Of a stretch of DNA of 64,000 bases, positions 25,251-47,923 are shown piece after piece. Every line of letters begins with the position of its first letter. The stretch's first letter is position 1. The position numbers were made by a program, and so were the translations under genes. Source of the DNA: an uncultured bacterium (GTDB lineage Bacteria; Patescibacteriota; Patescibacteriia; SG8-24; DYFX01). Below the pieces are notes generated by a model. It did no database searches and was not told the origin of the DNA. It saw only the letters and a program-made list of their open reading frames with translations. The stretch spans positions 9,655-73,654 of the forward strand of contig CALCDZ010000002.1 in the NCBI GenBank assembly GCA_937900255.1, read 5' to 3'.

Positions 25251-25461
25251 GACGGCTCTCCTGAATGAACGTGTGGTGACATCTTGACATCGGGATAATT
25301 GTCTGTAAAGCGTCCGGGATGACTTTTGAGAATAGGTAGCACTTCTTGTTGTATTGATGCCAAGTCACGCAGATTGCTACCCGCAGCGTTGAGTTTTTGA
25401 CAGAATGGGGGGGTTCCATGTAAGTTGAAACAAGTTCATTTTGAACGGAAAGAGGATCGAA

Positions 25462-26190: not shown

Positions 26191-26197
26191 AATCCCT

Positions 26198-26562: not shown

Positions 26563-26592
26563 CAGAGGCCTCAAGGCCTCTTTTTATCCTCG
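26563..26592 (+). terminator. Rho-independent terminator
   Basis: AGAGGCC-tcaa-GGCCTCT followed by TTTTTAT. Confidence 0.7.
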
Positions 26593-26640: not shown

Positions 26641-28035
26641 ATGCCTCTCGACCTCGATCACCTTCACCGGATCCACTGCGTCGGCATCGGCGGCATCGGC
26701 GTTTCGGCCGTCGCCAAGTTCTTGCGGCTGCAAGGCAAGGAAGTGAGCGGTTCCGACGGGGCGCGCAGCGTGGTCACGGCCGATGCCGAACGCGTCGGCG
26801 TCTCCGTCTTCGATCCGTCGCCGGAAAACATCGCGCCGGACCTCGATCTGCTCATCTACACGTCGGCGGCGCCGGAGACGCATCCGGAACGCGAGGCGGC
26901 GGCCAGGTTCGGCATCCCGCAGCTCAGCTACTTCGAGTTCCTCGGATTGCTTTCGTCACGTCATCGGACGGTCGCGGTCTGCGGCACGAACGGGAAGTCG
27001 ACCACGACCGCGATGCTCGGCCTGATCCTGGAGCGCGCAGGACTCGACCCGCTCGTCATCGTGGGCAGTCGCGTGCCGACCTTTGAATACGGCAATCTTC
27101 GTCCCGGAGAAGGCGGGCTTCTCGTGGTCGAAGCCTGCGAATACCGCGAGCAGTTCATGAGCCTGTCGCCATCGGTGGTCGTGACGACCAAGATCGCGGA
27201 AGACCATCTCGACTACTACCGTGACTTGGCGCATATCCAGGCGACGTTCCGTGCCTTCGCTTCGAAACGGCCTGCGGACGGCCCGCTCATCTGGAACGCC
27301 GATGACGCGGGGAGTCGCGAAGCGTATGCGGGCATCGACGGTCCGAACGGCACCTTCGGGTTCTCGTCCGGCGCCGACCTGCGCGCGGAACGCCACGAGG
27401 TCTCCGCCGGTCTTCAGCGCTTCGACGCCGTCTGGAATGACGGTGTCGCCTGGCGGGGATTGGAGCTCGCAGTGCCGGGCGCCTTCAACGTGTCCAACGC
27501 GCTGGCCGCTCTCGGGGCCGCCCGTGCGCTCGGCGCGGACGAGGCATCCGCCCGTTTCGCGCTCGCGGGGTTCACGGGCATCTGGCGTAGGTTCGAGAAA
27601 GTGGGGGAACGCGATGGGGCTCCGATCATCTCCGATTACGGCCATACGCCGGACGCCATCGCGGCCACGCTCCAGGCCGCGCGCGATTTCTACCCTGGCC
27701 GCAAGATCGTCCTGGCTTTCCAGCCGCATCATCACGACCGCACGCGCAAGCTCTTCGACGCTTTCGTTCCCGCCTTCGACGGAGCCGATACGCTCGTCCT
27801 CTCCGAAATCTATGACGTGGCCGGACGCGAGGAAGGCGCGGGCACGATCTCGTCGCGAGCGCTGGTCGAGGCGATCGAGGCGCGCGGAGCCGTTCCGAGC
27901 GTCCGGTACGCGCCGGATCCGGCCGATGCGCTCCGGCAGCTCGAAGCGCTTGACGCTGAAAATGCCATCATGCTGGTCATGGGCGCAGGGGACATTTATT
28001 CCATTGCCTATCCGCTATGCCGACCGTCGAAATGA
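26641..28035 (+). CDS. murC: UDP-N-acetylmuramate--L-alanine ligase
   Basis: N-terminal HCVGIGGIGVSAVAKFL Rossmann, GTNGKSTT P-loop, and Mur ligase middle and C domains. Start at MPLDLD. Confidence 0.85.
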   Translation: MPLDLDHLHRIHCVGIGGIGVSAVAKFLRLQGKEVSGSDGARSVVTADAERVGVSVFDPSPENIAPDLDLLIYTSAAPETHPEREAAARFGIPQLSYFEFLGLLSSRHRTVAVCGTNGKSTTTAMLGLILERAGLDPLVIVGSRVPTFEYGNLRPGEGGLLVVEACEYREQFMSLSPSVVVTTKIAEDHLDYYRDLAHIQATFRAFASKRPADGPLIWNADDAGSREAYAGIDGPNGTFGFSSGADLRAERHEVSAGLQRFDAVWNDGVAWRGLELAVPGAFNVSNALAALGAARALGADEASARFALAGFTGIWRRFEKVGERDGAPIISDYGHTPDAIAATLQAARDFYPGRKIVLAFQPHHHDRTRKLFDAFVPAFDGADTLVLSEIYDVAGREEGAGTISSRALVEAIEARGAVPSVRYAPDPADALRQLEALDAENAIMLVMGAGDIYSIAYPLCRPSK

Positions 28036-30242
28036 AGCCGTTGGACAAGTTCCTGCTCTACGTCGTCCGCTACGGCCTATTCGCGGTCTTCGCGCTGCCT
28101 TTCGTGGTCTGGTTGAGTCACCTGTACCCATGGGTGACCGGTAAGGTCTTCAGTTTCGTGATCCTCGTCGAAGTCCTGTTTCCTGCCTACGTCTTGCTGG
28201 CACTGCGCCGCCGGGAGTTCCGCCCTTCCAGGAATCCGCTTCTTTACGCGCTTCTTGCCTACTTCGCGGTAGAGACGCTTTCGATGCTCCTGGGCGATAA
28301 TGCGCATCGCAGTCTCTGGTCGAAACCGGATCGGCTGACGGGCCTGTTCTTCCAGTATCACCTCCTCGCGTTCTTCCTCATGGCCGGAGCCGTCTGGCGG
28401 AAGGTGATGGTCCAGCCGATCGTCGCGTCGATCGTCACCGCCGTCCTCCTTTCGCTCCAGGCGCTCCACCAGGTCTTCTCGCCTGCGCCCGGGTCCGACG
28501 GTCGTGGCTCGGCGACGCTCGGTAATCCGGATTATCTCGGACAATATCTCGTGCCGCACCTGTTCCTGTGCGGCTGGTTGATCCGGCGGCACTGGAAGAC
28601 GTCGCTGCGATGGCTGTGGACGGGCGCCGGCGCGCTTATCCTGGCAGGCATCGTCTCCGCCCAATCGAAAGGTGCGCTTGTCGGCGTCGCGATCGGCATC
28701 CTGGTCGGAGCGCTTGTCCTGATTTTCCGATCGACCGGCATGGTCCGGAAGGCAGGACTCGCCGGCATGGGGGTGCTGGCGCTTGCCGTCGCGGGCTTCT
28801 TCATCGGCCAGAAGATCCGGCCGGTCAACGTCTGGTTGTATGATCATCGTTTCTCCATCCAGTATCTCCAGGAAACGACGGGGTCCCGGCGGCTGCTCCT
28901 GCAGAACGCCTTGAAAGGCATCGGCCAGCGCCCGATCCTGGGCTGGGGTCCGGAGAATTTCGAGGACGGTTTCTATTTCAACTACGACCCGCACACCCTG
29001 AAGTTCTCGGATTACGAGACCCGTCAGGATCGGCCGCATAACCTGGTGCTGGAACTCCTGCACAACCTTGGCGCGATCGGTTTCCTCGCGTATGCGCTCG
29101 TCCTCGTCTCCGCCGCGCGCCTGGCCCTGAAGAAAGGACGTCCGGAAATGGCGGCAGGCGTCATCCTGATCGTGGCTGCCGTCTCGCAGGTCGCCACCGA
29201 TCTCTTCATCTTCGAGACGCCGATGTCGTATATGGCGCTCTTCCTCATGTTCTCGCTGATCGCGGCCGATGCGGGAGAACGGGAGGCGTGGGAAGAAGGC
29301 GGCGATGAGACTTCCGCCGCATCCGTACCGCTCTTCGTCCTGGCCGCGGCGCTTTCGGGCTGGTGCCTGATCGGCATCGTGTCCGGCACGATCGCTTCCA
29401 CGCGCCTGACGGCTTCGATGATCGTCGGCCTGCAGGCGCAGGGGGCCTCCGACCAGGACAAGGCCGATCAGCTGAAGGCGGAACTGTCCGGCCTCCGCAA
29501 GCTGAAGACGCCTTACTATGAACGCGACATCCGCGCGCTCAGTTCGCATCTCAGCCGCGCTCGCGGCGAATATCTGGAAGGTCCCCTCAAGCCGATCCTG
29601 ATCGAGACGGCGGAGGAGGAATACGGGCTGCTTCAGCGCAACCGCACGGATTACGTGCACGCGCTCGTCACGGCCGTGGCCTACCTGAGCTTCCATCCGC
29701 GCACGGACGCGCAGCAGGCCGCGCTTGAGGATTCCGCGTCGCTTGCATCCAAGCTTTCCCCGAACCGCCAGGAGGTCGAGGAGATCCTGGCCCAGATCGC
29801 TTGGGAAAAAGGCGACCTTCCCGCATCCGAGGCGCATATCCGCCGGATCAAGGATCTCGACCCCGAACTGCCGATCGGCGACGCCTGGCGGATCAGGTGG
29901 CAACTGGAGTTCGGCGATCCCAAAGAGGCCGTCAAGGCGCTTTCGGGGCGACCAGAAATCGCGCAGGATACGACGGCATGGAATCAGGTCGAATACGGCA
30001 CGCTTCATCTGCTCACGCAGAAGCGTTGGCAAAGCCTTGCGGCATTGCAAGAGGCGTCCGCAGCCGCCGGGGTGCGCAACGTCCAGTGGGACCTGACCGG
30101 TGCGATCGCCTATTGGGCGGAAGGCCAGAAGACCAAGAGCGATGCGCTCATCGCCGAGTGCCGGAAGCGCTATCCGGACAAGCTTGACCTGATCACTTCG
30201 ATCGAGACGAATCGAGCCCAAATCGTCGCGACCGGCGCATGA
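28032..30242 (+). CDS. O-antigen ligase/polymerase-like (Wzy_C) membrane protein with C-terminal TPR-like domain
   Basis: About 12 TM N-terminal half, then a large TM-flanked loop, and a soluble alpha-helical repeat C-terminus. ATGA overlap with murC. Confidence 0.75.
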   Translation: MKPLDKFLLYVVRYGLFAVFALPFVVWLSHLYPWVTGKVFSFVILVEVLFPAYVLLALRRREFRPSRNPLLYALLAYFAVETLSMLLGDNAHRSLWSKPDRLTGLFFQYHLLAFFLMAGAVWRKVMVQPIVASIVTAVLLSLQALHQVFSPAPGSDGRGSATLGNPDYLGQYLVPHLFLCGWLIRRHWKTSLRWLWTGAGALILAGIVSAQSKGALVGVAIGILVGALVLIFRSTGMVRKAGLAGMGVLALAVAGFFIGQKIRPVNVWLYDHRFSIQYLQETTGSRRLLLQNALKGIGQRPILGWGPENFEDGFYFNYDPHTLKFSDYETRQDRPHNLVLELLHNLGAIGFLAYALVLVSAARLALKKGRPEMAAGVILIVAAVSQVATDLFIFETPMSYMALFLMFSLIAADAGEREAWEEGGDETSAASVPLFVLAAALSGWCLIGIVSGTIASTRLTASMIVGLQAQGASDQDKADQLKAELSGLRKLKTPYYERDIRALSSHLSRARGEYLEGPLKPILIETAEEEYGLLQRNRTDYVHALVTAVAYLSFHPRTDAQQAALEDSASLASKLSPNRQEVEEILAQIAWEKGDLPASEAHIRRIKDLDPELPIGDAWRIRWQLEFGDPKEAVKALSGRPEIAQDTTAWNQVEYGTLHLLTQKRWQSLAALQEASAAAGVRNVQWDLTGAIAYWAEGQKTKSDALIAECRKRYPDKLDLITSIETNRAQIVATGA

Positions 30243-31383
30243 GGTCCTGGTAGAGCTCCAGGGTGCTCGCGACCATGGATGAACCGGAGCGGCGTTCCGC
30301 GATGCGCGGGGCGCCGCTTTTCAGTTTTTGGGACAGGTCCTGACCGGCCAGGACGGAACGGATGGCGGAGACGAGCCTTTCGCGGTCGGCGGGCGGTATG
30401 AGAAGCCCCGTTTCCCCGTCCTCGATCAGTTCCGGCAGCGCGCCGACGCGGGTGGCGATGATCGGCACGCCGGCGAGCGAGGCTTCCAGGATCGCCCATG
30501 GCAAGCCTTCTTTCGTGGAGGGGAGGATGAAGAGGTCGAACGCCTTGAGTAGCCGGGCGGCGTCGGGCAGGGCGCCAGGCAGGCAGATGCGCGCGCGGTG
30601 GGCGAGGCCGGAACGGCGCGCCAGGAGTTCCGGCATCTTCGGGCCGTCTCCGATGACGACGAGATCGACATCAGGAAATTCTCCGGCGACCGCGTCGAAC
30701 GCTTCGAGCAGCATCGGAAGATTCTTTGCGGGATAGCTGTTGGCGATCGTGCCGATGATCCGTTCGAAGGCCGGCACCCCGCAAGCCTTGGAAAGTTCCG
30801 TAAGCGCGGCATCCCGTCCAAGGAAGGCGATCTCGTCCGGATCGATGCCGAGCGGAATGAGGTGCAGTCGAGCCGGAACGGAAAGATCCTTGTCCAGCGC
30901 GACGGCGCGTTCGGTCTCGGTCAATACGATGGTAGCGGAGCGCCAGAGCGACGCCAGCTTTTCGCTCGCGAGCATGAGCAGTCGGAACGGGAAAGGTCTC
31001 CGCTCCAAGAAACCCCAGCCATGGGCGGTGAAGATCAGGGCGGGACGTCGCTTCGAGAGCCGGACGGCCAAGGCTGCGATCAGGCCGGCCTTGCTGCTGT
31101 TGGAGTGAATCAGGGCGTACCCCTCCCGATCGATCATCTTTCGGACGGCGTTGACCGCTTTCAGGTCGTTCCATGGCGAGATCGGGCGGCGCAACGCCGG
31201 AATCTCGAAGGTCCGGATGCCGTTCGGAAGCGCCTTGAAAAGCTCGGATCGCGCAGAGGATCCGGCTGCGACCGTCACGTCGAATCCGGAACGCGCGGCG
31301 GCGGCCAGGCGCGCGACATAGCGCTCGGCGCCTCCCCAGGCCGAGGAGGTGATGAGATACAGGAGTTTCGGCTTGGCATCCAT
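30193..31383 (-). CDS. Glycosyltransferase family 4
   Basis: 396 aa GT-B. KLLYLITSSAWGGAERYV N-terminus and EGLPWAILEASLAGVPIIAT C-domain. Confidence 0.8.
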   Translation of the reverse strand: MDAKPKLLYLITSSAWGGAERYVARLAAAARSGFDVTVAAGSSARSELFKALPNGIRTFEIPALRRPISPWNDLKAVNAVRKMIDREGYALIHSNSSKAGLIAALAVRLSKRRPALIFTAHGWGFLERRPFPFRLLMLASEKLASLWRSATIVLTETERAVALDKDLSVPARLHLIPLGIDPDEIAFLGRDAALTELSKACGVPAFERIIGTIANSYPAKNLPMLLEAFDAVAGEFPDVDLVVIGDGPKMPELLARRSGLAHRARICLPGALPDAARLLKAFDLFILPSTKEGLPWAILEASLAGVPIIATRVGALPELIEDGETGLLIPPADRERLVSAIRSVLAGQDLSQKLKSGAPRIAERRSGSSMVASTLELYQDLMRRSRRFGLDSSRSK

Positions 31384-31424
31384 ATTTGCCGCAGGAAAGC
31401 GCAGCAGCTACACTATAGCATGAC

Positions 31425-33650
31425 ATGAAAGTCGTCTTCGCCACCGGAATCTTCCCGCCCGACATCGGCGGACCGGCCGCCTCGGTCCCGTTGTTGGCGG
31501 AAGCTTGGAGCGCTCGCGGGCATGAAGTGACGGTCGTGACGTATGCGGACGCGCCGTCGGTCGCCGGAAACGATCCCGCTTATCGCGTCGTCAGGATTTC
31601 CCGCACGCTTCCGGTTTGGAGGCGGTACCCCGCGTTTTTCATGGCGTTGTGGCGCGCCTCGGCAGGGCCTGGCTCGATCTTCGCCCAGGACGGCGTCGCT
31701 TCCGGGGTGCCGGCGTTGATCGTCTCCCGTCTGCGCCGTCGGCGCCTGATCGTCAGGATCGCCGGAGATTTCGCGTGGGAGCGCGCGCAGGTGGCGCATG
31801 GGTACCGGGAATCGCTTGAGACGTTCCAGCGGGACCGGCGGCTCCCGCTCGGTCTCAGGGTCATCCGAGCGCTACAGCGTTCCGTCTTCCGGCACGCTCA
31901 CCTCGCGGTCGCGCCGAGCCGCTATCTTGCGGATGTGCTGCGCGGTTGGGGGGTGGGCGAGAACCGGATCCGCGTCATCCACAACGGGGTCGTCCTGCCG
32001 GACGTCATCCCTGCACACGGCACTCATCCTCGACGCATCGTCGCGTCCGCCCGGCTCGTGCCATGGAAGAACATCGACGTGCTCATCAAGGCGATGCCGG
32101 GCGTCCTGGCACGCGTGCCGGACGCGACCCTGCTGATCGTCGGAGACGGACCGGAACGGGAACGCCTCGAGGCACTCTCCGCGGCGCCGATGCTGAAAGG
32201 GAAGGTTTCCTTCGCCGGACGGATGGAGCGGAAGGATCTTCTTACGATCATCGCCGAAAGCGCGGTCTTCGCTTTGCCGAGTTCCTACGAGGGCTTTTCT
32301 CACCAGTTGGTGGAGGCGTTCGCCTGCGGAGCCGCCGTCGTCGCCAGCCGCGCCGGCGGCAATACGGAACTGGTCGCGGATGGCAAGAACGGTCTTTTGG
32401 TCGAACCTGGCGACGTCGTCGGGCTCTCGAAGGCCCTCATCCGCTTCCTTGAGGAGCCGGCTTTCGCTGAAGCCTGCGGACGGGAAGCGGCGAAGGGGCT
32501 TGCCGGTTTTACGGTCGATACGCAAATCGCCCGGACGACCGAGGCGGTCTTGGGCCGGCCCGGATTGCGCGTGGTGCTCGTGAGCCGCGACGGCACGGCG
32601 GCGGATCCTTCTTCGCGGACGGCGGCGCGCATGCGCGCCTATGGGGAGCGGGTCGACTTCCTGCATGTGGTCTGTCTCGCGAGACAGGAGCCGTCCTCCA
32701 TGCGGCTTTCGCCGCGCGTGCAGGTGGATGTCGTGGATGCGCGCACGGCGCTCCGTCATCCTTTGGCGCTGACCGGCGCCGTGAAAGATGCCGCCATTGC
32801 CTCGCAAGCGTCGCTCGTCGTCGCGCAGGACCCGTTCGAGGCCGGCGTATCCGCAGCTGCGGCCGCTTGGTCCGTCGGCGTGCCGCTCCTCGTCGAGGAG
32901 CATGGCGGCGTCTACCTTTCCCCGCATTGGAGACGGGAAAAGATCAAACATCGTCTGCTGCATCCGCTGGGACTCCTGGTCATGGGCCGCGCGGCCGGCC
33001 TGCGCGCCGTGAGCGCCAAGATCGAGGCCGACCTGCGCCGTCGCTGGCCGAAGATGCCGATCGCGCGCATCCCCGTCTATACCGAGCCGATCGCGTGCTA
33101 TCGCGAAGGCGCGCCGTACGTCTTCGGATACGTCGGGCGCTTCGTGCCGCAGAAAAAACTTGAGATGCTCCTTTCGGCTTTCGCTTCCGTCGTCCGTACC
33201 CGTCCAGAAGCGCGCCTTCTCATGGTCGGCGCCGGTCCTTCGGAAGCGGCATTGCGCGCCGAAGCGGAAGCGCTCGGTATCGGCGATCATGTGACGTGGC
33301 GGCCGTACAGCGAGCGCATCGTCGACGTCTTCAAGGAAATCGGCACCTTGGTCCTCTCGTCCCGGTACGAGGGCTGGGCGCGCGTCGTGCCTGAGGCGAT
33401 GTCCTGCGGCATTCCCGTGGTGATGACGGACGTCGGCTGCGCCGGCGAACTCCTGCGTAACGGCGTCGAAGGCTACGTGACCCCGATCGACGACGCGGGC
33501 ATCTTGGCTCAAGCCATGCTCAAGATCTCCGATCCGCACCAGCATGCGCTCATGAGCGCGGCCGCCAGGCGCCGCTCGGAAACTTCCGCGACGCCCGAAG
33601 ACCTGGCCGGGCGCCTCATCGGTTTCTGGAAGGAGGTGGCTGGCCTATGA
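31425..33650 (+). CDS. Tandem double GT4 glycosyltransferase (two GT-B modules fused)
   Basis: 741 aa. Two E-x7-E-type C-domains (EGFSHQLVEAFACGAAVV and EGWARVVPEAMSCGIPVV). Confidence 0.75.
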   Translation: MKVVFATGIFPPDIGGPAASVPLLAEAWSARGHEVTVVTYADAPSVAGNDPAYRVVRISRTLPVWRRYPAFFMALWRASAGPGSIFAQDGVASGVPALIVSRLRRRRLIVRIAGDFAWERAQVAHGYRESLETFQRDRRLPLGLRVIRALQRSVFRHAHLAVAPSRYLADVLRGWGVGENRIRVIHNGVVLPDVIPAHGTHPRRIVASARLVPWKNIDVLIKAMPGVLARVPDATLLIVGDGPERERLEALSAAPMLKGKVSFAGRMERKDLLTIIAESAVFALPSSYEGFSHQLVEAFACGAAVVASRAGGNTELVADGKNGLLVEPGDVVGLSKALIRFLEEPAFAEACGREAAKGLAGFTVDTQIARTTEAVLGRPGLRVVLVSRDGTAADPSSRTAARMRAYGERVDFLHVVCLARQEPSSMRLSPRVQVDVVDARTALRHPLALTGAVKDAAIASQASLVVAQDPFEAGVSAAAAAWSVGVPLLVEEHGGVYLSPHWRREKIKHRLLHPLGLLVMGRAAGLRAVSAKIEADLRRRWPKMPIARIPVYTEPIACYREGAPYVFGYVGRFVPQKKLEMLLSAFASVVRTRPEARLLMVGAGPSEAALRAEAEALGIGDHVTWRPYSERIVDVFKEIGTLVLSSRYEGWARVVPEAMSCGIPVVMTDVGCAGELLRNGVEGYVTPIDDAGILAQAMLKISDPHQHALMSAAARRRSETSATPEDLAGRLIGFWKEVAGL

Positions 33651-36833: not shown

Positions 36834-36903
36834 ATATCAGCATGAGTATATCGGAACAAGTGCGGCTTCGCAACGCCGGAAGACCTGGTATACTGGAGCC
36901 GTT

Positions 36904-38234: not shown

Positions 38235-38236
38235 CT

Positions 38237-38899: not shown

Positions 38900-41196
38900 G
38901 ACTCGTCTACATCGCCAACGTCCGTTTGCCGACCGAAAAGGCGCACGGCGTGCAGATCATGCAGATGTGCGCGGCCTTCGCGTCGAACGGGCATGAGGTC
39001 ATGCTGATCGTGCCTGGGCGCCGTAATGCCATCGCGGCGACTCCGTGGGAGTACTATGGTCTCAAACGGAACTTCCGGATCGTGACGGTACCGGTCCTCG
39101 ACTTCATCCCGTTCGATCGCTGGCTCGGCAACGCTGCGTTGTGGTTGACGACCGTCGGATTCGCCTTCGGCGCGCGTAGGGTCGTTGCGGACGCGCGGCC
39201 TGATGCCGTCTACTCGCGGGACGCCGTCCTCGTGACGACCGTGCCGAAGGGCGTGCCCTTCGTCTTTGAAGCGCACGATTTTCCGACGAGGCCCTGGCTC
39301 TATCGGTTCCTATGGAAGGCGTGCTCCCGTATCGTCACCGTGACGGAAGGGCTGAAGCGCGCTTTCATCGCCGCCGGAGTGCCCGAGACCAAGCTGGTCG
39401 TCGCGCATGACGCCGTCGATCCAGGTATTTTTCAGGTATCGGAAAGCAAGGCGGAGGCGCGGCGCGCGCTTGGGCTGCCCACCGAGGGTTTCATCGCCGT
39501 CTACTCCGGCCATCTCTATCCTTACAAGGGGGCCGACGATCTGCTCGAAGCCTGTCTGCATCTGCGCCCAGCTTCGCGAGTGGTCTTCGTCGGTGGACGC
39601 CCTGAAGAAGTCGCCAGGCTGCGGATGCAGGCCGAAAAGCTCGGTGTCACGAACGCCTTTTTTGTCGGGCAAGTGCCTCACGGACTCATCCCGATGTATC
39701 TGCGGGCCGCCGATGGGGCCGTCCTGCCGACGCGTGATACGGATCGGCATGCGTCCGAATTCCTCTCGCCTCTCAAGCTGTTCGAGTATCTGGCCGCCGG
39801 GAAAGCCATCGTCGCCACCGACCTGCCATCGATCCGGGAAGTGTTGGACGAGAATACGGCCGTTTTCGTGCCGCCCCGGTCGCCGGAGGCTTTGGCCGCC
39901 GCCCTGAACGGCCTGGCGGACGTTCCCGTTGAAGCCGAACGCCTGTCTCGGGAAGCGGAAGCCCTGTCGAGGGACTGCACGTGGGTCCATCGCGCTGGAC
40001 GCGTGCTTTCGGGAACGGACGAACCGCAGCCCTCGCTGACCTGGCTGCGGCGGCATCGCGCCGTGCTGGCCTGCATGCTCTTGGCGTTCATCCTGCGCGC
40101 CGCGTATGTCCTCGCGTTCCCGCTGAGACTGGCAGGAGGCGATGGCGAACTGTACGTCGGGTATGCCGACCTCCTCCGCGGGATTCCGGCTTGGTCGCCG
40201 CGCATGTACGCCTACTTCCAGCCCGGCTACCCGATCTTTCTCGCGGTCATCCGTAGCTTGTTCGGTACCGACCTTGTCGCCGTCGGCCTGTCTCAGGCCG
40301 TCATTTCCGCGCTCACGGTCGGCCTCGTGACGGCCATGACGCGGAAACTGGTCGGGGCGCGCGCGGCCGTTTTTGCCGGGCTCATGTCGGCCGTCTCCGC
40401 TTCCTCCATCGTCGAGACCGGGCAGATCTATACCGAAACGCTGTATACGTTCCTGTTGACCGCCGCCGTCTGCGCGCTCCTCGTGGATGCGCACCATCGC
40501 GCCATGCGTCATGCCGCCATCGTCGGTGCATCGTTCGCGCTCGCCGGCTTCGTCCGCGAACTCGCTCTGTATCACGCTGCCCTTCTTGCCGCCGTGACCG
40601 GCATCGGCAAGCGGTCGTGGCGGCCGGTCGTCGGCATCATGGCGCCCGTCGTCGTCATGCTTCTCGTTTTTGGCGCGTATAACCGTACGGTCGCCGCCGG
40701 GCAGGCGGTTCCGCGCGTGCCGATCCTCGCGAAGGGATATGAGGCTACGCTTCAGGACCCGGCTTCGCAGGCCTTCCTCCTGCGCTGGCGGATGTATCCG
40801 CTCGGCCTCTGGTATTTCTTCCGCTATCCGCATCGGTTCGCCGACATCAGCGACCAGGTCTCGACGCGGCAGGCGCTCTTTTCCGGAGACGCCGCCTTGA
40901 TCGGCAGGGAAGCGCCGTACATCCTGGCGAAGGGTCTGCTGACGCTCCTGCATTGGATGATACTGGTCTTGGCGGCCTATGGTCTTTGGCGCGGACGGAT
41001 GCCGCGCGAGGCGAAGATCGTCATCTCCGTGACGATCGCCTTCGCGGCTGCTACGATAACGCTTTCCGGGGCAGCGCGGCTTCAAGGCTTCGAATACCTG
41101 GAGCCGTTGGCCCGTTATCGTTTCCCGGTCGAACCGCTCATCATGATCCTGGCGGCGGCGGGGGCCGAACGCTTCTTAAAGAACGAGACGACGTAA
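38896..41196 (+). CDS. Fusion protein: GT4 glycosyltransferase (GT-B) + polytopic GT-C (PMT_2/ArnT-like) domain
   Basis: 766 aa. Residues about 1-370 form a GT-B (EFLSPLKLFEYLAAGKAIVAT). Residues about 380-766 have 10 or more TM helices (RRHRAVLACMLLAFILRAAYVLAFPL...). Confidence 0.7.
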   Translation: MRLVYIANVRLPTEKAHGVQIMQMCAAFASNGHEVMLIVPGRRNAIAATPWEYYGLKRNFRIVTVPVLDFIPFDRWLGNAALWLTTVGFAFGARRVVADARPDAVYSRDAVLVTTVPKGVPFVFEAHDFPTRPWLYRFLWKACSRIVTVTEGLKRAFIAAGVPETKLVVAHDAVDPGIFQVSESKAEARRALGLPTEGFIAVYSGHLYPYKGADDLLEACLHLRPASRVVFVGGRPEEVARLRMQAEKLGVTNAFFVGQVPHGLIPMYLRAADGAVLPTRDTDRHASEFLSPLKLFEYLAAGKAIVATDLPSIREVLDENTAVFVPPRSPEALAAALNGLADVPVEAERLSREAEALSRDCTWVHRAGRVLSGTDEPQPSLTWLRRHRAVLACMLLAFILRAAYVLAFPLRLAGGDGELYVGYADLLRGIPAWSPRMYAYFQPGYPIFLAVIRSLFGTDLVAVGLSQAVISALTVGLVTAMTRKLVGARAAVFAGLMSAVSASSIVETGQIYTETLYTFLLTAAVCALLVDAHHRAMRHAAIVGASFALAGFVRELALYHAALLAAVTGIGKRSWRPVVGIMAPVVVMLLVFGAYNRTVAAGQAVPRVPILAKGYEATLQDPASQAFLLRWRMYPLGLWYFFRYPHRFADISDQVSTRQALFSGDAALIGREAPYILAKGLLTLLHWMILVLAAYGLWRGRMPREAKIVISVTIAFAAATITLSGAARLQGFEYLEPLARYRFPVEPLIMILAAAGAERFLKNETT

Positions 41197-41228
41197 ACGC
41201 GGCTGCGTCGATAACCTATGGCATTCGT

Positions 41229-41972
41229 ATGAAAGAGGCGATATTTTACGACGATTCGTACTTCCAGGCATTGGAGAATCGTTACTTCTTAGGGGCGCAT
41301 GGTGAACGCGTCAGGGATATCGTGTCTTTCCTCCCATCCAGGAAACACGTCCTTGATTATGGTGCCGGCAGCGGTTACTTCGCATTCCGCGCTCTACAGC
41401 TTGAAAATACCGTCGTTGCGTTCGATTTTGCGCCGGCGGCAGTGCAATACATGCGGTCGCACTATCCGACGCTTGAAATCGTCGAACGGAAGGATGCCTT
41501 GAAGGGGGTGTATGACACGATTCTTCTGAACGACGTGATCGAGCACGTCGACTACTCTGAGCAGGCTTCTTTCATCTCCAATCTCCGGGAGCACTTGAAA
41601 GCAGGCGGTCGATTGATTGTCGCGACCGATAATTTTGACTCGTTCTTCTTCAGGGGCCGTCTCGGTAAAAAATGTCTAGCGATCGATCAGCGCATTTCTC
41701 CAGAAGGCATCATTTATAGGGCCATTAAAAAGGGTGAGACGGAACGTCCTTATTACCACAATGCCTATAATGATTCCCATGTCGGATTACTTGGGCGCGA
41801 CAAATTGGTTCGACTTTTCAAGAGCCAAGGCTTTGAGCTCGTTCGCGAAAAGCACGGTTTTCTCTTTCGTACTTACGTTTCCCGCCTTATCAGCGCATGT
41901 TTTGGGCTCAGGCCACTGCATTCCGTCTATGAGTTCACTTTGATGGCAGAGACCCTCCCGCGTTCAAGGTAG
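41229..41972 (+). CDS. Class I SAM-dependent methyltransferase
   Basis: VLDYGAGSGYFA motif I, and LLNDVIEHV. Local GC is about 50%, lower than the neighbours. Confidence 0.65.
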   Translation: MKEAIFYDDSYFQALENRYFLGAHGERVRDIVSFLPSRKHVLDYGAGSGYFAFRALQLENTVVAFDFAPAAVQYMRSHYPTLEIVERKDALKGVYDTILLNDVIEHVDYSEQASFISNLREHLKAGGRLIVATDNFDSFFFRGRLGKKCLAIDQRISPEGIIYRAIKKGETERPYYHNAYNDSHVGLLGRDKLVRLFKSQGFELVREKHGFLFRTYVSRLISACFGLRPLHSVYEFTLMAETLPRSR

Positions 41973-43257
41973 GCGACGCGTTTTTCGAGGCCTCAGGTTC
42001 CACGTTTAAGATTTTTCGGACAAGAAGCGTTGAATGAAGAAGCCCGAAGATACGAGCGAGGGTTCTTGCGCAGATCGCGCCGAGCAGCCCCCATTTCCAG
42101 ACAAAAAGTGCAAGAGACACGATGCTGATCGCAGACATCGAAACCTGGTAGTGGAGGTTCTCCTTATATCTCATGTGTCCATTGAAGACCGCTACCGGGA
42201 GCGCGGAGGCGATGCCGAGCAGTGATATGGAGAAGATCTGTGAATATGGTATGGCTTCGGCGTACCCGGGAAAAAGCTGCCGATAAATCTGTGGAGCCAC
42301 TAGGACGTAAACGATGATGACGCTGCCGATGGCGGCGATCAACAGGAAGAGTTTTCGGAAGAAAGTCGGCCGTATTTCATTGAGCGGTCGCGCAGCGACT
42401 TTTGGGAGCGCCATCACGTACAGGTTTTTCAGATAGCCTTTGAGCTGCTCTGGCGGAGCGATGGCAAAAGCGTAGACGGCCGTCTCGTGGGAACCGAGCA
42501 GTGTGAAGATCAGGATACGGTCGAGATAATTGGAGATCGAAGAGGCGACATCCAGGAGCGTCAGATTCTTGCCGAAGCGGAGCGCATCGTCCGAAGCCTC
42601 GCCCTTCGGCGGCAGGCGCCGCAGCGTGGCGCCGAGCGCGATGGCGTTCCAGGCCAGCGAGGAAAGGCAGAACCCGAGCGTCAGCGCGATGACCGTCGGG
42701 TGCAGGAGCAGGATCGCGACGACGACGGCGGCCGTTCCGAGCGTCGAAGCGATCCCGTAGCGCGTCTGCAATCCGAAGGCTTTCCGGCCGTTGGCATAAT
42801 CGCCCCAAGAGGAGAGCGCCGAGATGGCGGGAAAAAAGACGGCGACGATCAGGAAGCCCCAGAAGAGATCCGTGCGTCCTTTCGAGAGGTAATATGCGCC
42901 GACCGCGAGTCCGCCCAAGGTGCCGATGCCGGCCCACCGCAGGCGCATCTTCAGGACCGCGTAGATCGTCCTTTCATGGCCTTGCGCGACGGCGCGCGTC
43001 AAAGCATCGGACGTTCCCGTGACGGATGCGATGGCGAGGATCGATCCCCAGGAGAGCAGGTACTGATACGTGCCGTAGACGCCCTTGCCGAGCAAGCGGG
43101 CGAACAGCATCGCCAGGGCCAAGCTCGAGGCCGAACCCATGAACGACGCGATCGACAGGAAAATCCCGCCCTTCGCCAGATAGACGTTGTCGGTACCGGT
43201 ATAGCGTTCTCCTCGGCGCAGGAGGCGGATCGCCAGGAGTTTCAGTCGCTGGAGCAT
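41935..43257 (-). CDS. wzx: Wzx-type polysaccharide flippase (MOP/PST family)
   Basis: 440 aa, 12-14 TM. N-terminus ...GIFLSIASFMGSASSLALAMLFARLLGKGVYGTYQYL is typical of Wzx/RfbX. Confidence 0.8.
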   Translation of the reverse strand: MLQRLKLLAIRLLRRGERYTGTDNVYLAKGGIFLSIASFMGSASSLALAMLFARLLGKGVYGTYQYLLSWGSILAIASVTGTSDALTRAVAQGHERTIYAVLKMRLRWAGIGTLGGLAVGAYYLSKGRTDLFWGFLIVAVFFPAISALSSWGDYANGRKAFGLQTRYGIASTLGTAAVVVAILLLHPTVIALTLGFCLSSLAWNAIALGATLRRLPPKGEASDDALRFGKNLTLLDVASSISNYLDRILIFTLLGSHETAVYAFAIAPPEQLKGYLKNLYVMALPKVAARPLNEIRPTFFRKLFLLIAAIGSVIIVYVLVAPQIYRQLFPGYAEAIPYSQIFSISLLGIASALPVAVFNGHMRYKENLHYQVSMSAISIVSLALFVWKWGLLGAICARTLARIFGLLHSTLLVRKILNVEPEASKNASPTLNAGGSLPSK

Positions 43258-43264
43258 GGGAGCG

Positions 43265-44575
43265 TCACCGGCCTTTCCTCTTCAGGACGCTGTAGATCGT
43301 CTTGAGGACGATGGCGGCGTCGAGGGTCAGCGAGCGGTATTTCAGGTAATAGAGATCGTGCCGCAGCTTCAGCAGGTGGTCTTCATGGGTGGCCGCATAC
43401 GGAGCGCTGACCTGCGCCCACCCGGTCAGCCCGGGGCGTACCAGGTGCCGGACGGGGAAGAGCGGGATGGTCTTCGCGAGTTCGGCCTCGACTTCGGGCC
43501 GTTCCGGGCGCGGGCCCACGAAGCTCATATCGCCGCGGAGGATGTTCCAGAGCTGGGGCAGCTCGTCCAGCCGCGTGGCGCGGAGGAAGCGCCCGAAGCG
43601 GGTGACGCGCGGGTCGTTCTCGGTCGCGAAGGCGATGCCGTCCTTTTCGGCGTCGACGCGCATGGTGCGGAACTTCAGCATGGTGAACGGCCGCCCGCCC
43701 TTTCCGACGCGCGTCTGGCTGTAGAAAGCCGGTCCGCGGCTTTCGATGCGGATGATCGCGGCGATCAGCGGCGCGACCGGCAGCGAGGGGATGCAGAGGA
43801 GGATGGATGCCACGACGTCGAACAGGCGCTTGGCATGTTCATACATCGGCGAATCCTGTCCGGCCAGATTATCGACGATCCAGCGCTCATCGAGGGCCGA
43901 TTCCGGTACGGCATGGCGTATCTTCTCATAGAACGTCGGGAGATCGACGATGGCGGCGCGTTCGAAGAATTTGCGGTAAAGACGGGTCGTCAGCGCGGCG
44001 TTGCCTTGCAGCCGGCGGGACACGACGATCAGGTCGCAGGCCGGGAGTTCCCGAACGGACGATTCATCCGCCACGCCCAGGCAGCTGTAGCCGAGATGCG
44101 GATTCTGGGACAGGACTTCCCCCAATCCTGCGTCTTCCCCGAGGAACAGCACGCGCAGATGGAATCGCCGCCGCGAGAACAGGTGCAGGGCCAGGATCCT
44201 CCAGCCATAGAACAGCCCGGCGAAGAGCGCGGTCGCGAGCAGGAGATTGGTCTTCGGGGCGATGCCGATGCCCGGCATGAAATAAAAGACGGCCAACGAG
44301 AGCAGGAACGCCGCCGCGAGCGCCTCCGCCGTACGCGAAGCCAGCTCGATACGGCCGCGCACCGCGTCGTCATCGTACAGGCCGACGACGTAGAAGACGG
44401 CGAGCCAGATGACGAAAGCGAAAGTGAACGGCTTGGCATGCATCGCCCACCAGGCCGGAAAATCCTGCCCATCATGCCGCGAGAGCAGCGTCAGCCATAA
44501 CGCCAAATAGGCGAGCGCGAGGTCTCCGGTCGCCAAGAGGGCCATCCTGAGTTTGCGGGAGTCGGTCATCCCCAC
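43265..44575 (-). CDS. Polyprenyl glycosylphosphotransferase (WbaP/bacterial sugar transferase family initiating PGT)
   Basis: N-terminal 4-5 TM. C-terminal Bac_transf domain (...PGLTGWAQV...). Ends ...LKTIYSVLKRKGR. Confidence 0.85.
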   Translation of the reverse strand: MGMTDSRKLRMALLATGDLALAYLALWLTLLSRHDGQDFPAWWAMHAKPFTFAFVIWLAVFYVVGLYDDDAVRGRIELASRTAEALAAAFLLSLAVFYFMPGIGIAPKTNLLLATALFAGLFYGWRILALHLFSRRRFHLRVLFLGEDAGLGEVLSQNPHLGYSCLGVADESSVRELPACDLIVVSRRLQGNAALTTRLYRKFFERAAIVDLPTFYEKIRHAVPESALDERWIVDNLAGQDSPMYEHAKRLFDVVASILLCIPSLPVAPLIAAIIRIESRGPAFYSQTRVGKGGRPFTMLKFRTMRVDAEKDGIAFATENDPRVTRFGRFLRATRLDELPQLWNILRGDMSFVGPRPERPEVEAELAKTIPLFPVRHLVRPGLTGWAQVSAPYAATHEDHLLKLRHDLYYLKYRSLTLDAAIVLKTIYSVLKRKGR

Positions 44576-44628
44576 AAGACTAGCCTATAATGGACGTTTC
44601 CGCTATGCTTGACCGGTATCATCGTCGT

Positions 44629-45765
44629 ATGCGCCTTTGCTTCATACTCGGAACCAGGCCGGAAATCATCAAGTCGGCACCCCTCATTTTCGCCGCCAGC
44701 GAGGCTGGATACGCTCCCGTCATCATCCATTCAGGGCAGCATTACGATACGGCGATGGATGGAGGCTTCTTTCAGGAGCTTTCCCTTCCCGCGGCCGACG
44801 TGCGTCTTTCGTCCGGGGGCAAGCCCTACGCCGAACAGGTCGCCTATCTGCTCCGGGAGCTTCCCGGGGCGCTGAAGGAGCTTCGTCCCGACGCGGTCGT
44901 CTTGCAGGGCGATACCGTCACCGTCATGGCGGGCGCTCTCGCGGCGCATGGCCTCAATATCCCCATCATCCACCACGAGGCCGGTCTTCGGTCGCGCGAC
45001 CAGCGCATGGCGGAGGAGTATCACCGCATCATCGCCGACCACGTGTCGACGCTGCTTTGCGCGCCGACGGAGGCGGCGGTCGCCAACCTGCTGAACGAAG
45101 GCATTCCGAGAGAGCGCGTGCACCTGACCGGTAACGCGGTCGTCGACGCGATCAGGCGATTTTCCGGACAGGCTGCGCGGGAGTCGAGCGTGCTCGAAAA
45201 ACTTTCCTTGGCTGCGAAGTCCTATTTCGTGCTGACGTTCCATCGCGCCGAGAATGTCGACGATCCGAGCCGGTTCTCCGCCTTCTTGGCTTCGCTCGAA
45301 CGGATCGTGCGCGAGCATCCCGACCGGCGGATCGTCTTTCCCGTCCATCCCAGGGTCGAGAAGCGGCGCGCCGAGTTCGGTCAAGCGTGGCCTTCAGCCG
45401 TGCTGCCCATAGGACCCCTGGGGTATTTCGACATGCTTCGGCTGCTCTCTGAAGCGGATCTGGTCCTGACGGATTCCGGCGGCTTGCAGGAAGAGGCGGC
45501 GATCCTGGGCGTACCTTGCGTCACGCTGCGCGACAGCACGGAGCGTCCCGAAACCGTGGAAGCCGGATCGAACGTCGTGGCGGGGCTTGCGGAAGATGCG
45601 GTCTCCGAGGCCGTCCGCGCCATGCGCGGCAAGGCGCTCGACCCGATTTCGGCATATGGCGACGGCTTCGCTTCGGAAAGGATCATTCATCTCGCGCGCG
45701 GCGCGTTCGGCGTGCCGGCGTGCCGAGCCGTCACCGAAAAACATGAGGATACTCGTCGTCAGTGA
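44629..45765 (+). CDS. wecB: UDP-N-acetylglucosamine 2-epimerase (non-hydrolysing)
   Basis: MRLCFILGTRPEIIKSAPLI, the canonical WecB/MnaA N-terminus. Start could alternatively be ATG 44590. Confidence 0.85.
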   Translation: MRLCFILGTRPEIIKSAPLIFAASEAGYAPVIIHSGQHYDTAMDGGFFQELSLPAADVRLSSGGKPYAEQVAYLLRELPGALKELRPDAVVLQGDTVTVMAGALAAHGLNIPIIHHEAGLRSRDQRMAEEYHRIIADHVSTLLCAPTEAAVANLLNEGIPRERVHLTGNAVVDAIRRFSGQAARESSVLEKLSLAAKSYFVLTFHRAENVDDPSRFSAFLASLERIVREHPDRRIVFPVHPRVEKRRAEFGQAWPSAVLPIGPLGYFDMLRLLSEADLVLTDSGGLQEEAAILGVPCVTLRDSTERPETVEAGSNVVAGLAEDAVSEAVRAMRGKALDPISAYGDGFASERIIHLARGAFGVPACRAVTEKHEDTRRQ

Positions 45766-46921
45766 TACGTACCTTCCGCTCGTAGGCGGCGCCGAAGTGC
45801 ACGTCTCGGAACTCGCGAGCCGCCTCAAGGCGGCCGGTCACGAGGTCCGGGTTTTCACCAACCAGGACGGGCCGGAAGAGGAAGGCGTCGTGCGCGTGCC
45901 TTGGCGCCGGAATTTCCTCGAGGTCTACCGGAAACTCGATGCCCTGTGCGGAGCCTTCAAGCCCCAAGTGATCGCCGCGCACTACTCCTATCGGTTGGCG
46001 ATGATCGCCGGTTTTTCGGCATTGAAGCGCGGCATCCCGATGACGGTCACCTTGCACGGGCTCGGCACGCTGCCTGAGGCGCATGCTTCCTGGCGCCCGC
46101 GTCTCCAGAACCTGCTATACCAGCGGCTTTCGCTGGCGTTCGCCGCGAAGGTGATCGCCACGAGTCAGGACATGCTTGATGCGGTGCCGTACGTCGCCGC
46201 GAAGACCGAAATCATCCCGAACGCCGCCGACGGCCAGCGTTTCGATCCTGCCGCCTGGGCGTCGGACGCCGCCGCCGGCGCGCTCCGGGAGCGCTATGCC
46301 GGGCGCTCGGTCATCCTGACGGTCCGGCGGCTGAACCCGAAGTGCGGCATCCAGTATCTCGTCGAAGCGCTGCCCGAAATCGTGCGAAGGCGCCCGGAGG
46401 CGTTGTACGTGATGGTCGGCACCGGCCGCCTGGAGGAAGAGATCCGCGCGCGCATAAAAACGTTGGGGATGGAGAAGCATGTCGAGATGGTCGGCCTCCT
46501 GCCGAACGGGAGGACCCCCGCGTATTTTTCCGCGTCCGATGTCGTCGTCTTTCCCAGCACGGCCGAGTCCACCAGCATTTCCTGCATCGAAGCCATGCTG
46601 ATGGAAAAGCCGGTCGTAGCCTCCCGCGTCGGCGGCCTGATCGAATTGCTCGGTACGGACGGAACGCGCGGGCGGCTGGTGAAGCTGGTCGATTGGGAAG
46701 CGTCGAACTACGAAGCTCCGCCGGTTTCCGAAATGCCCAAAGACCGCATCGCTGCCTTGGCGGACGCCGTCTGCGACCTGCTCGACGATCGCGCGGAACG
46801 TGAGAGGATGGGGAAGGAAGCCCGCGCGTACGCGCTGGCCCACTTCGATTGGGATGTCATCATGACGCGCACCATCGGCATTTATGAGCATCTTGCGTCA
46901 GGCGCTGGGAGAACGGCTTAA
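45743..46921 (+). CDS. Glycosyltransferase family 4
   Basis: MRILVVSDTYLPLVGGAEVHV. Start at ATG 45743, overlapping the wecB 3' end. The N-terminal 52 aa of ORF 45587 are rejected. Confidence 0.75.
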   Translation: MRILVVSDTYLPLVGGAEVHVSELASRLKAAGHEVRVFTNQDGPEEEGVVRVPWRRNFLEVYRKLDALCGAFKPQVIAAHYSYRLAMIAGFSALKRGIPMTVTLHGLGTLPEAHASWRPRLQNLLYQRLSLAFAAKVIATSQDMLDAVPYVAAKTEIIPNAADGQRFDPAAWASDAAAGALRERYAGRSVILTVRRLNPKCGIQYLVEALPEIVRRRPEALYVMVGTGRLEEEIRARIKTLGMEKHVEMVGLLPNGRTPAYFSASDVVVFPSTAESTSISCIEAMLMEKPVVASRVGGLIELLGTDGTRGRLVKLVDWEASNYEAPPVSEMPKDRIAALADAVCDLLDDRAERERMGKEARAYALAHFDWDVIMTRTIGIYEHLASGAGRTA

Positions 46922-47849: not shown

Positions 47850-47923
47850 TGCGGCCGGAGGCCGGGCTCTTGGCATCCTCCTTCCTTTCCGCTACGCTGA
47901 AGCCACTTATCCAGCTTTTTCCT

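Follow-up and report, generated by a model that had tools for sequence, protein, structure and literature searches.

The 64 kb stretch of Patescibacteria DNA analysed here (the window) carries a block of 15 glycan genes that fills the interval of ~19 kb between two peptidoglycan precursor genes, murC and murB. Genes were called from frame-specific third-position GC (GC3), which separates coding frames readily in this window of 64% GC, and families were assigned by Pfam and NCBIfam scans of the window open reading frames (ORFs). At the left border, MurC (UDP-N-acetylmuramate--L-alanine ligase; 26641-28035, + strand) scores 376 bits against TIGR01082 (cut-off 335.1) and contains three Mur ligase Pfam domains. 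At the right border, MurB (UDP-N-acetylmuramate dehydrogenase; 46884-47849, + strand) scores 284.9 bits against NF010480 (cut-off 259) and 217.7 bits against TIGR00179 (144.5). Both proteins are above NCBIfam equivalog cut-offs. The original prediction, made from the sequence alone, had named the gene families of the block at essentially the coordinates given below, and the Pfam/NCBIfam scans and GC3 support each of them; in particular, the glycosyltransferases, flippase, phosphoglycosyl transferase, WecB, NodB and methyltransferases are all confirmed by domain searches. The predicted overlaps of a few nucleotides with the border genes are also present. The first glycan gene overlaps murC by 19 nt when started at 28017, or by 4 nt (ATGA) when started at the alternative ATG at 28032, and the last overlaps murB by 38 nt.

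A metagenome scan anchored on MurB yielded 72 loci with which this arrangement can be compared. In distant relatives (MurB 37-52% identical), the backbone glyA-murC-murB-hpf-secA is kept. Fifteen of these distant-relative loci have no glycan gene in the murC-murB interval, which ranges from an overlap to 3.7 kb. The two genes are at most 26 bp apart in L028, L041, L042 and L058, and a few hundred bases apart in L046 and L075. One ORF of ~300 residues lies between them in L023, L032 and L038, other small non-glycan ORFs in L024, L029-31, L036 and L074, and 3.7 kb of non-glycan sequence in L035 and L045. The murC-murB pair is not routinely split by unrelated genes, which bears out the predicted insertion. 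The ~300-residue ORF, tested in L038, belongs to Cu-oxidase_4 and is of the YfiH/PgeF type (peptidoglycan editing factor family), and the intervening ORF of L024 resembles a shorter relative of it.

Throughout the clade of the window (MurC at least 56% identical), a glycan block of 15.5-25 kb parts murC from murB. In 12 of 12 genomes whose MurC shares 75-78% identity, the genes after murC are Wzy_C-TPR, a glycosyltransferase family 4 (GT4) gene on the - strand and a double GT4 gene; the same glycan genes follow murC in relatives with MurC 56-61% identical. On the other side, glycan genes lie immediately 5' of murB in each of the five loci at a MurB identity of 69% or more that are long enough to show this region. 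L092 (MurB 62%) is a separate contig that ends on the murC side, and the arrangement is visible there on the murB side only. Three relative blocks are bracketed by both murC and murB, two of them read directly and one deduced from gene lengths. They measure 15.5 kb (Hainich H41 contig), ~16.9 kb (CAZHHN010000008) and 25.0 kb (complete genome CP129476.1).

The identity of the island genes declines in parallel with that of MurC, and most island genes have a GC content of 0.62-0.67, equal to the flanks. Pfam scans gave no integrase or transposase match. The 64 kb window contains no tRNA gene and no Rfam family at threshold, indicating that it holds neither a tRNA-linked integration site nor a riboswitch. 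A repeat search of 22.0-48.5 kb returned short chance matches only, with no flanking direct repeats and no insertion sequence (IS) ends. Since identity tracks MurC and there is no tRNA, integrase or flanking repeat, the simplest reading of these comparisons is one old insertion at an ancestrally adjacent murC-murB pair, followed by vertical descent. The insertion is thus ancient and clade-wide, not recent in this genome.

Within the clade, the blocks divide into a core and variable cassettes. The core, whose order is kept, consists of the Wzy_C-TPR gene, GT4 (-), the double GT4, a GT4-like gene, a methyltransferase, a GT4::GT-C fusion, a second methyltransferase, the phosphoglycosyl transferase (-) and the GT4 overlapping murB, often with NodB included. 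About eight genes of this core hold their order and orientation from the MurC 56% to the MurC 78% relatives. The middle of the block is variable in relatives and may contain genes for DegT, hexapeptide acetyltransferase, GFO_IDH, formyltransferase, ATP-grasp, AsnB-like amidotransferase or carbamoyltransferase proteins. The closest relative (L008/L096) has exactly the gene order of the window minus the GT2/GT-C pair, indicating that this pair is a 2.1 kb indel. Homologues of the pair lie at other positions in L006, L007 and L015, in L015 beyond murB. The L015 genes (11004-14362) are glycan genes between murB and hpf, including a methyltransferase gene and a GT2 gene whose product is 56% identical to the window GT2, and the hotspot therefore reaches beyond murB. 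In the complete genome CP129476.1 (L089, 16422-19010), an 862-residue protein with faint Ig-like matches is encoded between the last GT4 and Wzx; it has no counterpart in the window, and its candidate roles are those of a surface protein or of a target for glycosylation.

The gene next to murC encodes a Wzy_C-family membrane protein with a tail of tetratricopeptide repeats (TPRs) (Wzy_C-TPR; 28017-30242, + strand), which scores 55.4 bits against PF04932 (cut-off 31.7). It is the only Wzy_C gene detected in the window and adjoins murC in all clade relatives examined. The AlphaFold model (pLDDT 92, pTM 0.89) has 13 transmembrane (TM) helices followed by a C-terminal helical tail (~residues 479-739). 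When the model is compared with the PDB by Foldseek, the top match is WaaL (7tpg_B; E 5.7e-4; TM-score 0.57, target-normalised), which is the sole fold match with E below 0.001; the other matches are TPR proteins. The TM domain has no sequence-level match to solved structures. A profile of 35 sequences matched the solved oligosaccharyltransferase 9rmk_A (E 1.4e-7), an 8-sequence TM-only profile did not match it, and the score against the TfpM model is negligible (18.5 bits; cut-off 600). The TPR tail had already been proposed in the original prediction. Although it gives no Pfam match in the window's own protein, it is recovered by the 35-sequence profile, which matches TPR proteins with E down to 4e-54 (the TPRs of OGT and SPY among them), and it is evident in homologues at 41-46% identity and in the AlphaFold model.

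In the Wzy_C-TPR protein, a single large outside loop (residues 267-342), not two loops, precedes TM10. Residues invariant in the homologues cluster in the outside loops, namely R106, H115, R163, R278, R291, GWGPENF at 309-315, D338, H341 and N342. R278, R291 and H341 are invariant among the 35 sequences, which does not imply a position-level match to the catalytic residues of WaaL. The short loops show the Lys/Arg-rich alternation expected when the N-terminus is inside the cell. From this alternation and the 13th helix we infer that the TPR tail is extracytoplasmic, on the side of the membrane that also carries the conserved loop.

Scans of the ORFs across the 64 kb window revealed no Wzz/PCP chain-length regulator and no LytR-CpsA-Psr (LCP; LytR_cpsA_psr) gene, no lipopolysaccharide (LPS) or lipid A genes were seen in the window, and the block has no recognisable pilin or S-layer-like gene. 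We favour a ligase or oligosaccharyltransferase role of Wzy_C-TPR over a polymerase role, a leaning and not a decisive one, in view of the single large outside loop, the match to the WaaL fold, the lack of a detected Wzz and the lack of a second Wzy_C gene in the window. In the literature we found no paper on this locus or on Wzy_C-TPR proteins in the candidate phyla radiation (CPR).

The block contains five genes bearing six GT4 modules, that is, four stand-alone genes (one of them double) and the GT4::GT-C fusion. The original prediction had listed six GT4 genes plus a fusion; the tandem double GT4 and the fusion are both present, but the count is corrected to five genes with six modules, the fusion included. 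The GT4 gene convergent with Wzy_C-TPR (30193-31383, - strand) belongs to the core, contains both the N- and the C-terminal Pfam GT4 domains, and has orthologues in every relative (54-64% identity). The tandem double GT4 (31425-33650, + strand), also core, consists of two complete GT-B modules, with two stretches each for Glycos_transf_1 and Glyco_transf_4 and orthologues at 42-67% identity. The GT4-like gene (33647-34693, + strand; Glyco_trans_1_4, 57.7 bits), of which Pfam recognises the C-terminal GT-B domain only, is a core gene whose place and strand differ among relatives and whose orthologues are 31-58% identical. The GT4 next to murB (45743-46921, + strand; Pfam GT4 domains) overlaps wecB by 23 nt as well as murB. 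The gene at its position in L096 also encodes 391 residues. The pre-murB GT4 of other relatives is not orthologous to it, their best match being the upstream GT4 at 28-35% identity. The GT4 modules give weak NCBIfam matches to TuaC and TuaH.

The GT4::GT-C fusion (38896-41196, + strand) is a core gene whose product combines a cytoplasmic GT4 domain (residues 1-370; Glycos_transf_1, 79.6 bits) with a following multi-TM PMT_2 domain (32.2 bits; cut-off 26.1). The architecture is full-length in 48 homologue clusters. The AlphaFold model has a pLDDT of 89.6, and its GT-B half resembles MshA, GlgM, PimB', HepE and PimA in Foldseek searches. These searches were swamped by the GT-B half, and the GT-C half was not matched to a specific solved GT-C. 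D416 and D425, in the first loop after TM1, are invariant. The fusion argues for functional coupling of the two activities. In a Candidatus Doudnabacteria locus (L093, 13987-16811), a GT4 and a PMT-family GT-C are encoded by separate genes with a 4-nt overlap, beside a Wzy_C homologue and a convergent GT4, and the pair looks like an unfused counterpart of the fusion. The Doudnabacteria module also contains further GT4s and has no mur genes nearby, indicating that the module is older than its arrival at murC-murB. In other proteins (P0119-P0126, P0135), GT4 domains related to the N-terminal half of the fusion are joined to methyltransferases or to a GtrA-like domain (PF04138), and this GT4 lineage seems prone to fuse with membrane or modification partners.

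The pair that is missing from the closest relative consists of a GT2 and a stand-alone GT-C. The GT2 (34690-35460, - strand; PF00535, 82.6 bits) resembles dolichol-phosphate mannose synthase (DPMS) and is a putative polyprenyl-phosphate sugar synthase. Its start was re-mapped to 35460, which gives a 4-nt overlap with the stop of the GT-C gene. The best solved match is the P. furiosus dolichol-phosphate mannose synthase 5mlz (E 5.5e-28), with ArnC structures next, and the top NCBIfam matches are AglJ, PpgS and ArnC, all under cut-off. A hydropathy scan revealed no TM segment in the GT2. The GT-C membrane glycosyltransferase (35457-36833, - strand; PMT_2, 31.9 bits, cut-off 26.1) has no sequence match to any solved structure. 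Among the scanned block ORFs there is no small GtrA-type flippase (PF04138), nor was an ArnEF-type flippase found.

The NodB-family polysaccharide deacetylase (36904-37632, + strand; PF01522, 88.9 bits) scores 74.8 bits against the PgaB N-terminal domain model, under its cut-off. The original prediction had grouped it with the GT2 and the GT-C as a triad. However, several relatives without the GT2/GT-C pair retain NodB: in L096, L085 and L087 it accompanies GT4_c, a methyltransferase and the fusion, and the orthologues in L008, L085 and L087 are 54-57% identical. NodB is therefore not the partner of the pair, and the triad does not stand as a functional unit. The protein is probably cytoplasmic, as neither a signal peptide nor a TM segment was seen in a simple hydropathy scan. 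On the same scan, a candidate role as a peptidoglycan deacetylase is unlikely.

Three S-adenosylmethionine (SAM) methyltransferases are encoded in the block. The first (37629-38234, + strand; Methyltransf_11, 31.8 bits) has orthologues in L008 and L085. The second (38237-38899, + strand) has a MetW-like fold (MetW, 74.7 bits; Methyltransf_23, 60.2 bits) and a weak match to the mycofactocin oligosaccharide methyltransferase MftM. The third (MT3; 41229-41972, + strand; Methyltransf_23, 54.2 bits; GC 0.51) is not orthologous to the methyltransferase at that position in most relatives, with matches at 29% identity only. MT3 and the adjoining flippase gene form a segment of lower GC. The flippase is a Wzx-type member of the multidrug/oligosaccharidyl-lipid/polysaccharide (MOP) superfamily (41935-43257, - strand; Polysacc_synt, 47.5 bits, cut-off 28.2). 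Homologues at 59-67% identity occur in the closest relatives (P0163-P0167, of which only P0165 was mapped to a relative, L096), and a more divergent Wzx (32%) adjoins murB in CP129476. There is no Polysacc_synt gene in the complete L091 block, nor in the L092 block, whose contig ends on the murC side. Wzx is thus accessory and outside the clade-wide core. The designation of the block as Wzx/Wzy-type in the original prediction fits this genome, which has Wzx, Wzy_C and the phosphoglycosyl transferase, but it does not extend to the relatives whose blocks lack Wzx, and no Wzz was found.

The large polyprenyl-phosphate phosphoglycosyl transferase (43265-44569, - strand) is a core protein with four N-terminal TM helices, a central domain (CoA_binding_3, 21.6 bits, under cut-off) and a Bac_transf catalytic domain (223.7 bits). 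It passes the cut-off of the generic exopolysaccharide model TIGR03025 (339 bits; 295.55) and falls below those of WbaP (TIGR03022; 201.4 versus 403 bits) and WcaJ (271.6 versus 410.75 bits). The predicted initiating phosphoglycosyl transferase is therefore present, but its assignment to the WbaP type failed. Orthologues are 56-68% identical and adjoin the pre-murB GT4. WecB (44605-45765, + strand), a non-hydrolysing UDP-GlcNAc 2-epimerase of 386 residues, scores 323.7 bits against TIGR00236 (cut-off 210.15) and would supply UDP-ManNAc. Among the blocks seen, WecB and the following GT4 are present only in the window and L096, and they are accessory. From WecB, the methyltransferases and NodB, it is a reasonable inference that the glycan would contain ManNAc, O-methyl groups and de-N-acetylated sugars.

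The transcriptional layout differs between the ends of the block and its interior. A GC-rich hairpin with a 16-bp stem and a U-tract (30286-30320, + strand), 44 nt 3' of the Wzy_C-TPR stop, is the strongest terminator-like site in the scan and sits within the 3' end of the convergent GT4 gene. The hairpin occurs in 13 of 13 genomes, most with the U-tract, with compensatory changes at 2 of 14 predicted pairs; L087 has a different hairpin and T-run directly after the Wzy_C-TPR stop. The 30286-30320 hairpin is likely the terminator of a two-gene unit of murC and Wzy_C-TPR. Another terminator-like hairpin with a T-run, from the consensus scan only, lies just 5' of murC (26564-26581, + strand). At the right end, the successive spacings between wecB, GT4, murB, hpf and secA are -23, -38, -1 and +4 nt, with hpf (47849-48235) overlapping the 3' end of murB by 1 nt and secA (48240-50987) following hpf after a 4-nt gap. 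The GT4-murB overlap is kept in relatives, and a perfect TATAAT (44584-44589) lies 5' of wecB. Co-transcription with the cell-wall genes had been proposed for the locus. Co-expression is well supported by the gene arrangement for the predicted end units, murC+Wzy_C-TPR and wecB-GT4-murB-hpf-secA, but not for the interior, which has at least three strand switches. A 70-bp divergent spacer (36834-36903) contains face-to-face sigma-70-like promoter matches, two of the three in 20 kb. Such matches are at chance level (3 found, 3.9 expected), and their placement in the spacer alone is suggestive.

Taken together, the gene families, the insertion, the split into core and cassettes, the end-gene overlaps and the conserved terminator-like hairpin are observations from which we propose that the block is probably a lineage-specific, vertically inherited cell-surface glycoconjugate locus, which became established between murC and murB in the ancestor of a single Paceibacteria-like Patescibacteria clade. 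The following steps are drawn from family membership. On the cytoplasmic face, the large phosphoglycosyl transferase would start the chain by placing a sugar-1-phosphate on polyprenyl phosphate. The lipid-linked oligosaccharide would be lengthened by as many as six GT4 modules, with UDP-ManNAc from WecB in this genome, and the three methyltransferases and the cytoplasmic NodB deacetylase would modify it. Wzx would move the lipid-linked oligosaccharide across the membrane. On the outer face, the WaaL-fold Wzy_C enzyme would shift the finished glycan from the lipid carrier to an acceptor. En-bloc ligation of the WaaL, PglL or TacL kind to a protein or lipid acceptor, recruited by the TPR tail, is favoured over polymerisation of repeat units. 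In addition, the DPMS-like GT2 may make a polyprenyl-phosphate sugar that the two GT-C domains would use to add extra residues outside the cell.

The proposed locus is of a known kind, a lipid-linked surface glycan assembly system built from ordinary families, and nothing in it overturns current understanding. The tuaABCDEFGH operon of B. subtilis directs a monoderm polyprenyl-phosphate envelope glycan with a Bac_transf phosphoglycosyl transferase, a Wzx-type flippase, a Wzy_C protein and GT4s, and the block has the same four components. Unlike tuaABCDEFGH, the block lacks a Wzz-like TuaF and a UDP-glucose dehydrogenase, carries a 13th helix and a TPR tail on its Wzy_C protein, includes GT-Cs, the fusion, methyltransferases and NodB, and is located between murC and murB. 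With the WaaL O-antigen loci (7TPG) it shares the WaaL fold and the invariant Arg and His residues in the large outside loop, but there is no Wzz here, and WaaL has no TPR tail. Patescibacteria are regarded as lacking LPS, and no lipid A gene is seen in the window either, which makes a lipid A-core an unlikely acceptor. The galF-gnd O-antigen loci have conserved housekeeping flanks and a variable middle, and the block is organised likewise.

Wzy_C-family enzymes such as PglL/PilO/TfpM and WsaB transfer a lipid-linked glycan en bloc to protein, and a WbaP-like phosphoglycosyl transferase is found together with GT4s and O-methylation in the slg S-layer glycan clusters of Geobacillus and Paenibacillus. 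The block resembles these systems in its Wzy_C-family enzyme, phosphoglycosyl transferase, GT4s and methyltransferases, and differs from PglL/TfpM/WsaB in its TfpM score (18.5 versus 600 bits), in the 9rmk match that is not reproducible and in having no adjoining pilin or S-layer gene in the window. TacL of S. pneumoniae is a Wzy_C-family lipoteichoic acid ligase that transfers a lipid-linked polymer to a glycolipid anchor. It offers a monoderm precedent for Wzy_C ligation to an anchor other than lipid A; however, TacL has no TPR tail, and the block has no teichoic acid genes (TarIJ, LicD). GtrA/B/C, ArnC/ArnT with the ArnD deformylase, and Bordetella LgmABC are three-component systems for extracytoplasmic glycosylation. 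The translational coupling of a DPMS/ArnC-like GT2 to a GT-C, with a NodB gene adjoining, is reminiscent of them, but no GtrA/ArnEF-type flippase was found in the block, the GT2 is without TM helices, and NodB is not the partner of the pair. In TMTC1-4 and in OGT/SPY, a glycosyltransferase is combined with a TPR superhelix that binds protein acceptors. Wzy_C-TPR is like these in architecture only, as their catalytic folds are of the PMT-type GT-C or the GT-B kind and that of Wzy_C-TPR is of the WaaL type.

Several points weigh against the glycoconjugate proposal or its details. All GT4, GT2 and GT-C proteins score under every equivalog cut-off, and which sugars the enzymes use, which acceptor receives the glycan and in what order the enzymes act are at most predictions from gene content. 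The outside position of the TPR tail is likewise a prediction, and the 9rmk match was not reproduced with the smaller TM-only profile. Sequence and fold do not separate a ligase from a polymerase, and as the glycosyltransferase set is itself conserved, the conservation of Wzy_C is a weak argument against a polymerase. With no Wzx in the L091 and L092 blocks, the conserved system needs a flippase encoded elsewhere or another route. In addition, the block may comprise two independent pathways and not one.

Some of these points bear on a possible but doubtful alternative, a classical Wzx/Wzy-dependent heteropolysaccharide (capsule or secondary cell-wall polymer) in which Wzy_C-TPR is the repeat-unit polymerase, the TPR tail is a built-in scaffold or chain-length device, and attachment of the polymer to peptidoglycan is left to an LCP-type enzyme whose gene lies elsewhere. 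The trio of phosphoglycosyl transferase, Wzx and Wzy_C and the several GT4 genes are consistent with such a polymer, as are the same kit in the B. subtilis teichuronic acid operon, with the weak TuaC/TuaH matches of the GT4 modules, and the location among peptidoglycan precursor genes, which suits a wall polymer. The lack of Wzz/PCP and LCP among the scanned ORFs of the window, the single large outside loop with WaaL as the sole significant fold match, and the L091 and L092 blocks without Wzx point the other way, none of them decisively. We regard it as unlikely that the junction is simply a permissive hotspot accumulating unrelated glycan cassettes (a phosphoglycosyl transferase/Wzx/Wzy_C pathway, a separate GT2+GT-C extracytoplasmic system and sugar-nucleotide modification), its link to murC and murB being positional and without functional meaning. 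The behaviour of the GT2/GT-C pair, a discrete 2.1 kb indel found at other positions too, including beyond murB in L015, would be explained in this way, and so would the genome-to-genome variation of the middle cassettes (DegT/hexapeptide/GFO_IDH, formyltransferase, AsnB-like, carbamoyltransferase), the lower GC of the MT3/Wzx segment and the similar Doudnabacteria module away from mur genes. However, the core of about eight genes keeps order and orientation across the MurC 56-78% relatives, the overlaps with murC and murB are held at both ends in every relative, and a conserved hairpin with compensatory changes bounds murC+Wzy_C-TPR.

The comparisons with relatives effectively refute a recent mobile genomic island or an assembly chimera. 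The GC content dips locally at 24-26.6 kb and 41-43 kb, which could hint at one, but the same arrangement is found in more than 15 independent assemblies, island identity falls with that of MurC, most genes match the GC of the flanks, and no tRNA, integrase/transposase match or flanking repeat was detected; the recent mobile island was rejected as a candidate in view of the missing direct repeats and IS ends in 22.0-48.5 kb. A bolder version of the glycoconjugate proposal, to which we give little credence, is that the Wzy_C-TPR and murC unit represents an undescribed Patescibacteria envelope ligase, which transfers glycan onto peptidoglycan/lipid II or performs general O-glycosylation of surface proteins. 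If so, glycan output would be tied to peptidoglycan precursor synthesis, as both draw on UDP-GlcNAc and the polyprenyl-phosphate carrier, and the GT4::GT-C fusion would be a second new enzyme type, one polypeptide linking cytoplasmic and extracytoplasmic steps.

Biochemical work on the Patescibacteria cell envelope is very scarce. These bacteria are thought to live attached to host cells, and their surface glycans therefore likely matter for that lifestyle. For the clade of the window, the locus would be a defined, clade-wide candidate for a major surface glycoconjugate, originating from one insertion at the ancestral murC-murB junction, with a core/cassette organisation that resembles serotype loci. 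Its unusual features are a WaaL-fold enzyme, coupled to murC, whose TPR tail is predicted to lie outside, a conserved GT4::GT-C fusion, a non-core flippase and a constant location at the junction of two genes for peptidoglycan precursors. Of these, the TPR-tailed WaaL-fold enzyme and the fusion are uncharacterised enzyme architectures.

The gene pair predicted upstream of murC is confirmed by Pfam and consists of an extra GT4 (22662-23777, - strand; Glycos_transf_1, 144.7 bits) and a short-chain dehydrogenase/reductase (SDR) of the NAD-dependent UDP-sugar 4-epimerase/decarboxylase type (23782-24750, - strand; Epimerase, 188 bits). All close relatives have the extra GT4 (74-82% identity); distant relatives are without it, and glyA abuts murC there. 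The gene is part of the same lineage-specific expansion as the block. The epimerase ORF extends to 24858, with a likely start at 24750. Its top solved-structure match is the UDP-glucose 4-epimerase 4zrm (E 1.4e-55), followed by UDP-glucuronate decarboxylases, and its score against the GalE model is 159.7 bits, under the cut-off of 262. As the GT4/epimerase pair is not in distant relatives, the expansion flanks murC on both sides. The stretch between the epimerase and murC (24855-26554) has a lower GC (0.50-0.62), is ~0.75 kb longer than its counterpart in relatives and contains four ORFs without a Pfam match, TM segments being predicted in three of them; homologues in relatives (41-60% identity) were found for the first alone (24855-25250).

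The polyprenyl-phosphate HexNAc-1-P transferase family gene at 15043-16113 (+ strand; PF00953, 92.9 bits) scores 88.2 bits against the WecA model (cut-off 326) and 50.8 bits against the MraY model (192), nearer to WecA and far below both cut-offs. It may yet be MraY itself, which would complete the dcw fragment, with the lower of the two scores. The order Glycos_transf_4-DUF192-L21-recR of this region is also found in the relative L087, and the gene belongs to the conserved backbone, not to the island. The window backbone runs from mraZ, rsmH, an ftsL-like gene, a CDP-alcohol phosphatidyltransferase, the WecA-like transferase, DUF192 and L21 through recR, ybaB, dnaB, a permease, folD, glyA, the GT4, the epimerase and small ORFs without assignment to murC, the glycan block, murB, hpf and secA. 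The division and cell wall (dcw) cluster (12467-16113) stops after mraZ, rsmH and the ftsL-like gene and is followed by the opposite-strand CDP-alcohol phosphatidyltransferase and the WecA-like transferase.

Downstream of secA, the window encodes a SecD of 689 residues (54733-56802) with a PpiC/parvulin-type peptidyl-prolyl isomerase (PPIase) domain (residues 264-375) between the first SecD domain and the P1 head, which would be a translocon-chaperone fusion. The 57797-61143 interval encodes a 446-residue protein without a Pfam match and, after it, a TrwB/TraG-like coupling ATPase bearing a treble-clef zinc finger. At 62571-63338, a bacterial TSP3 repeat is present on a YkuD-type L,D-transpeptidase.

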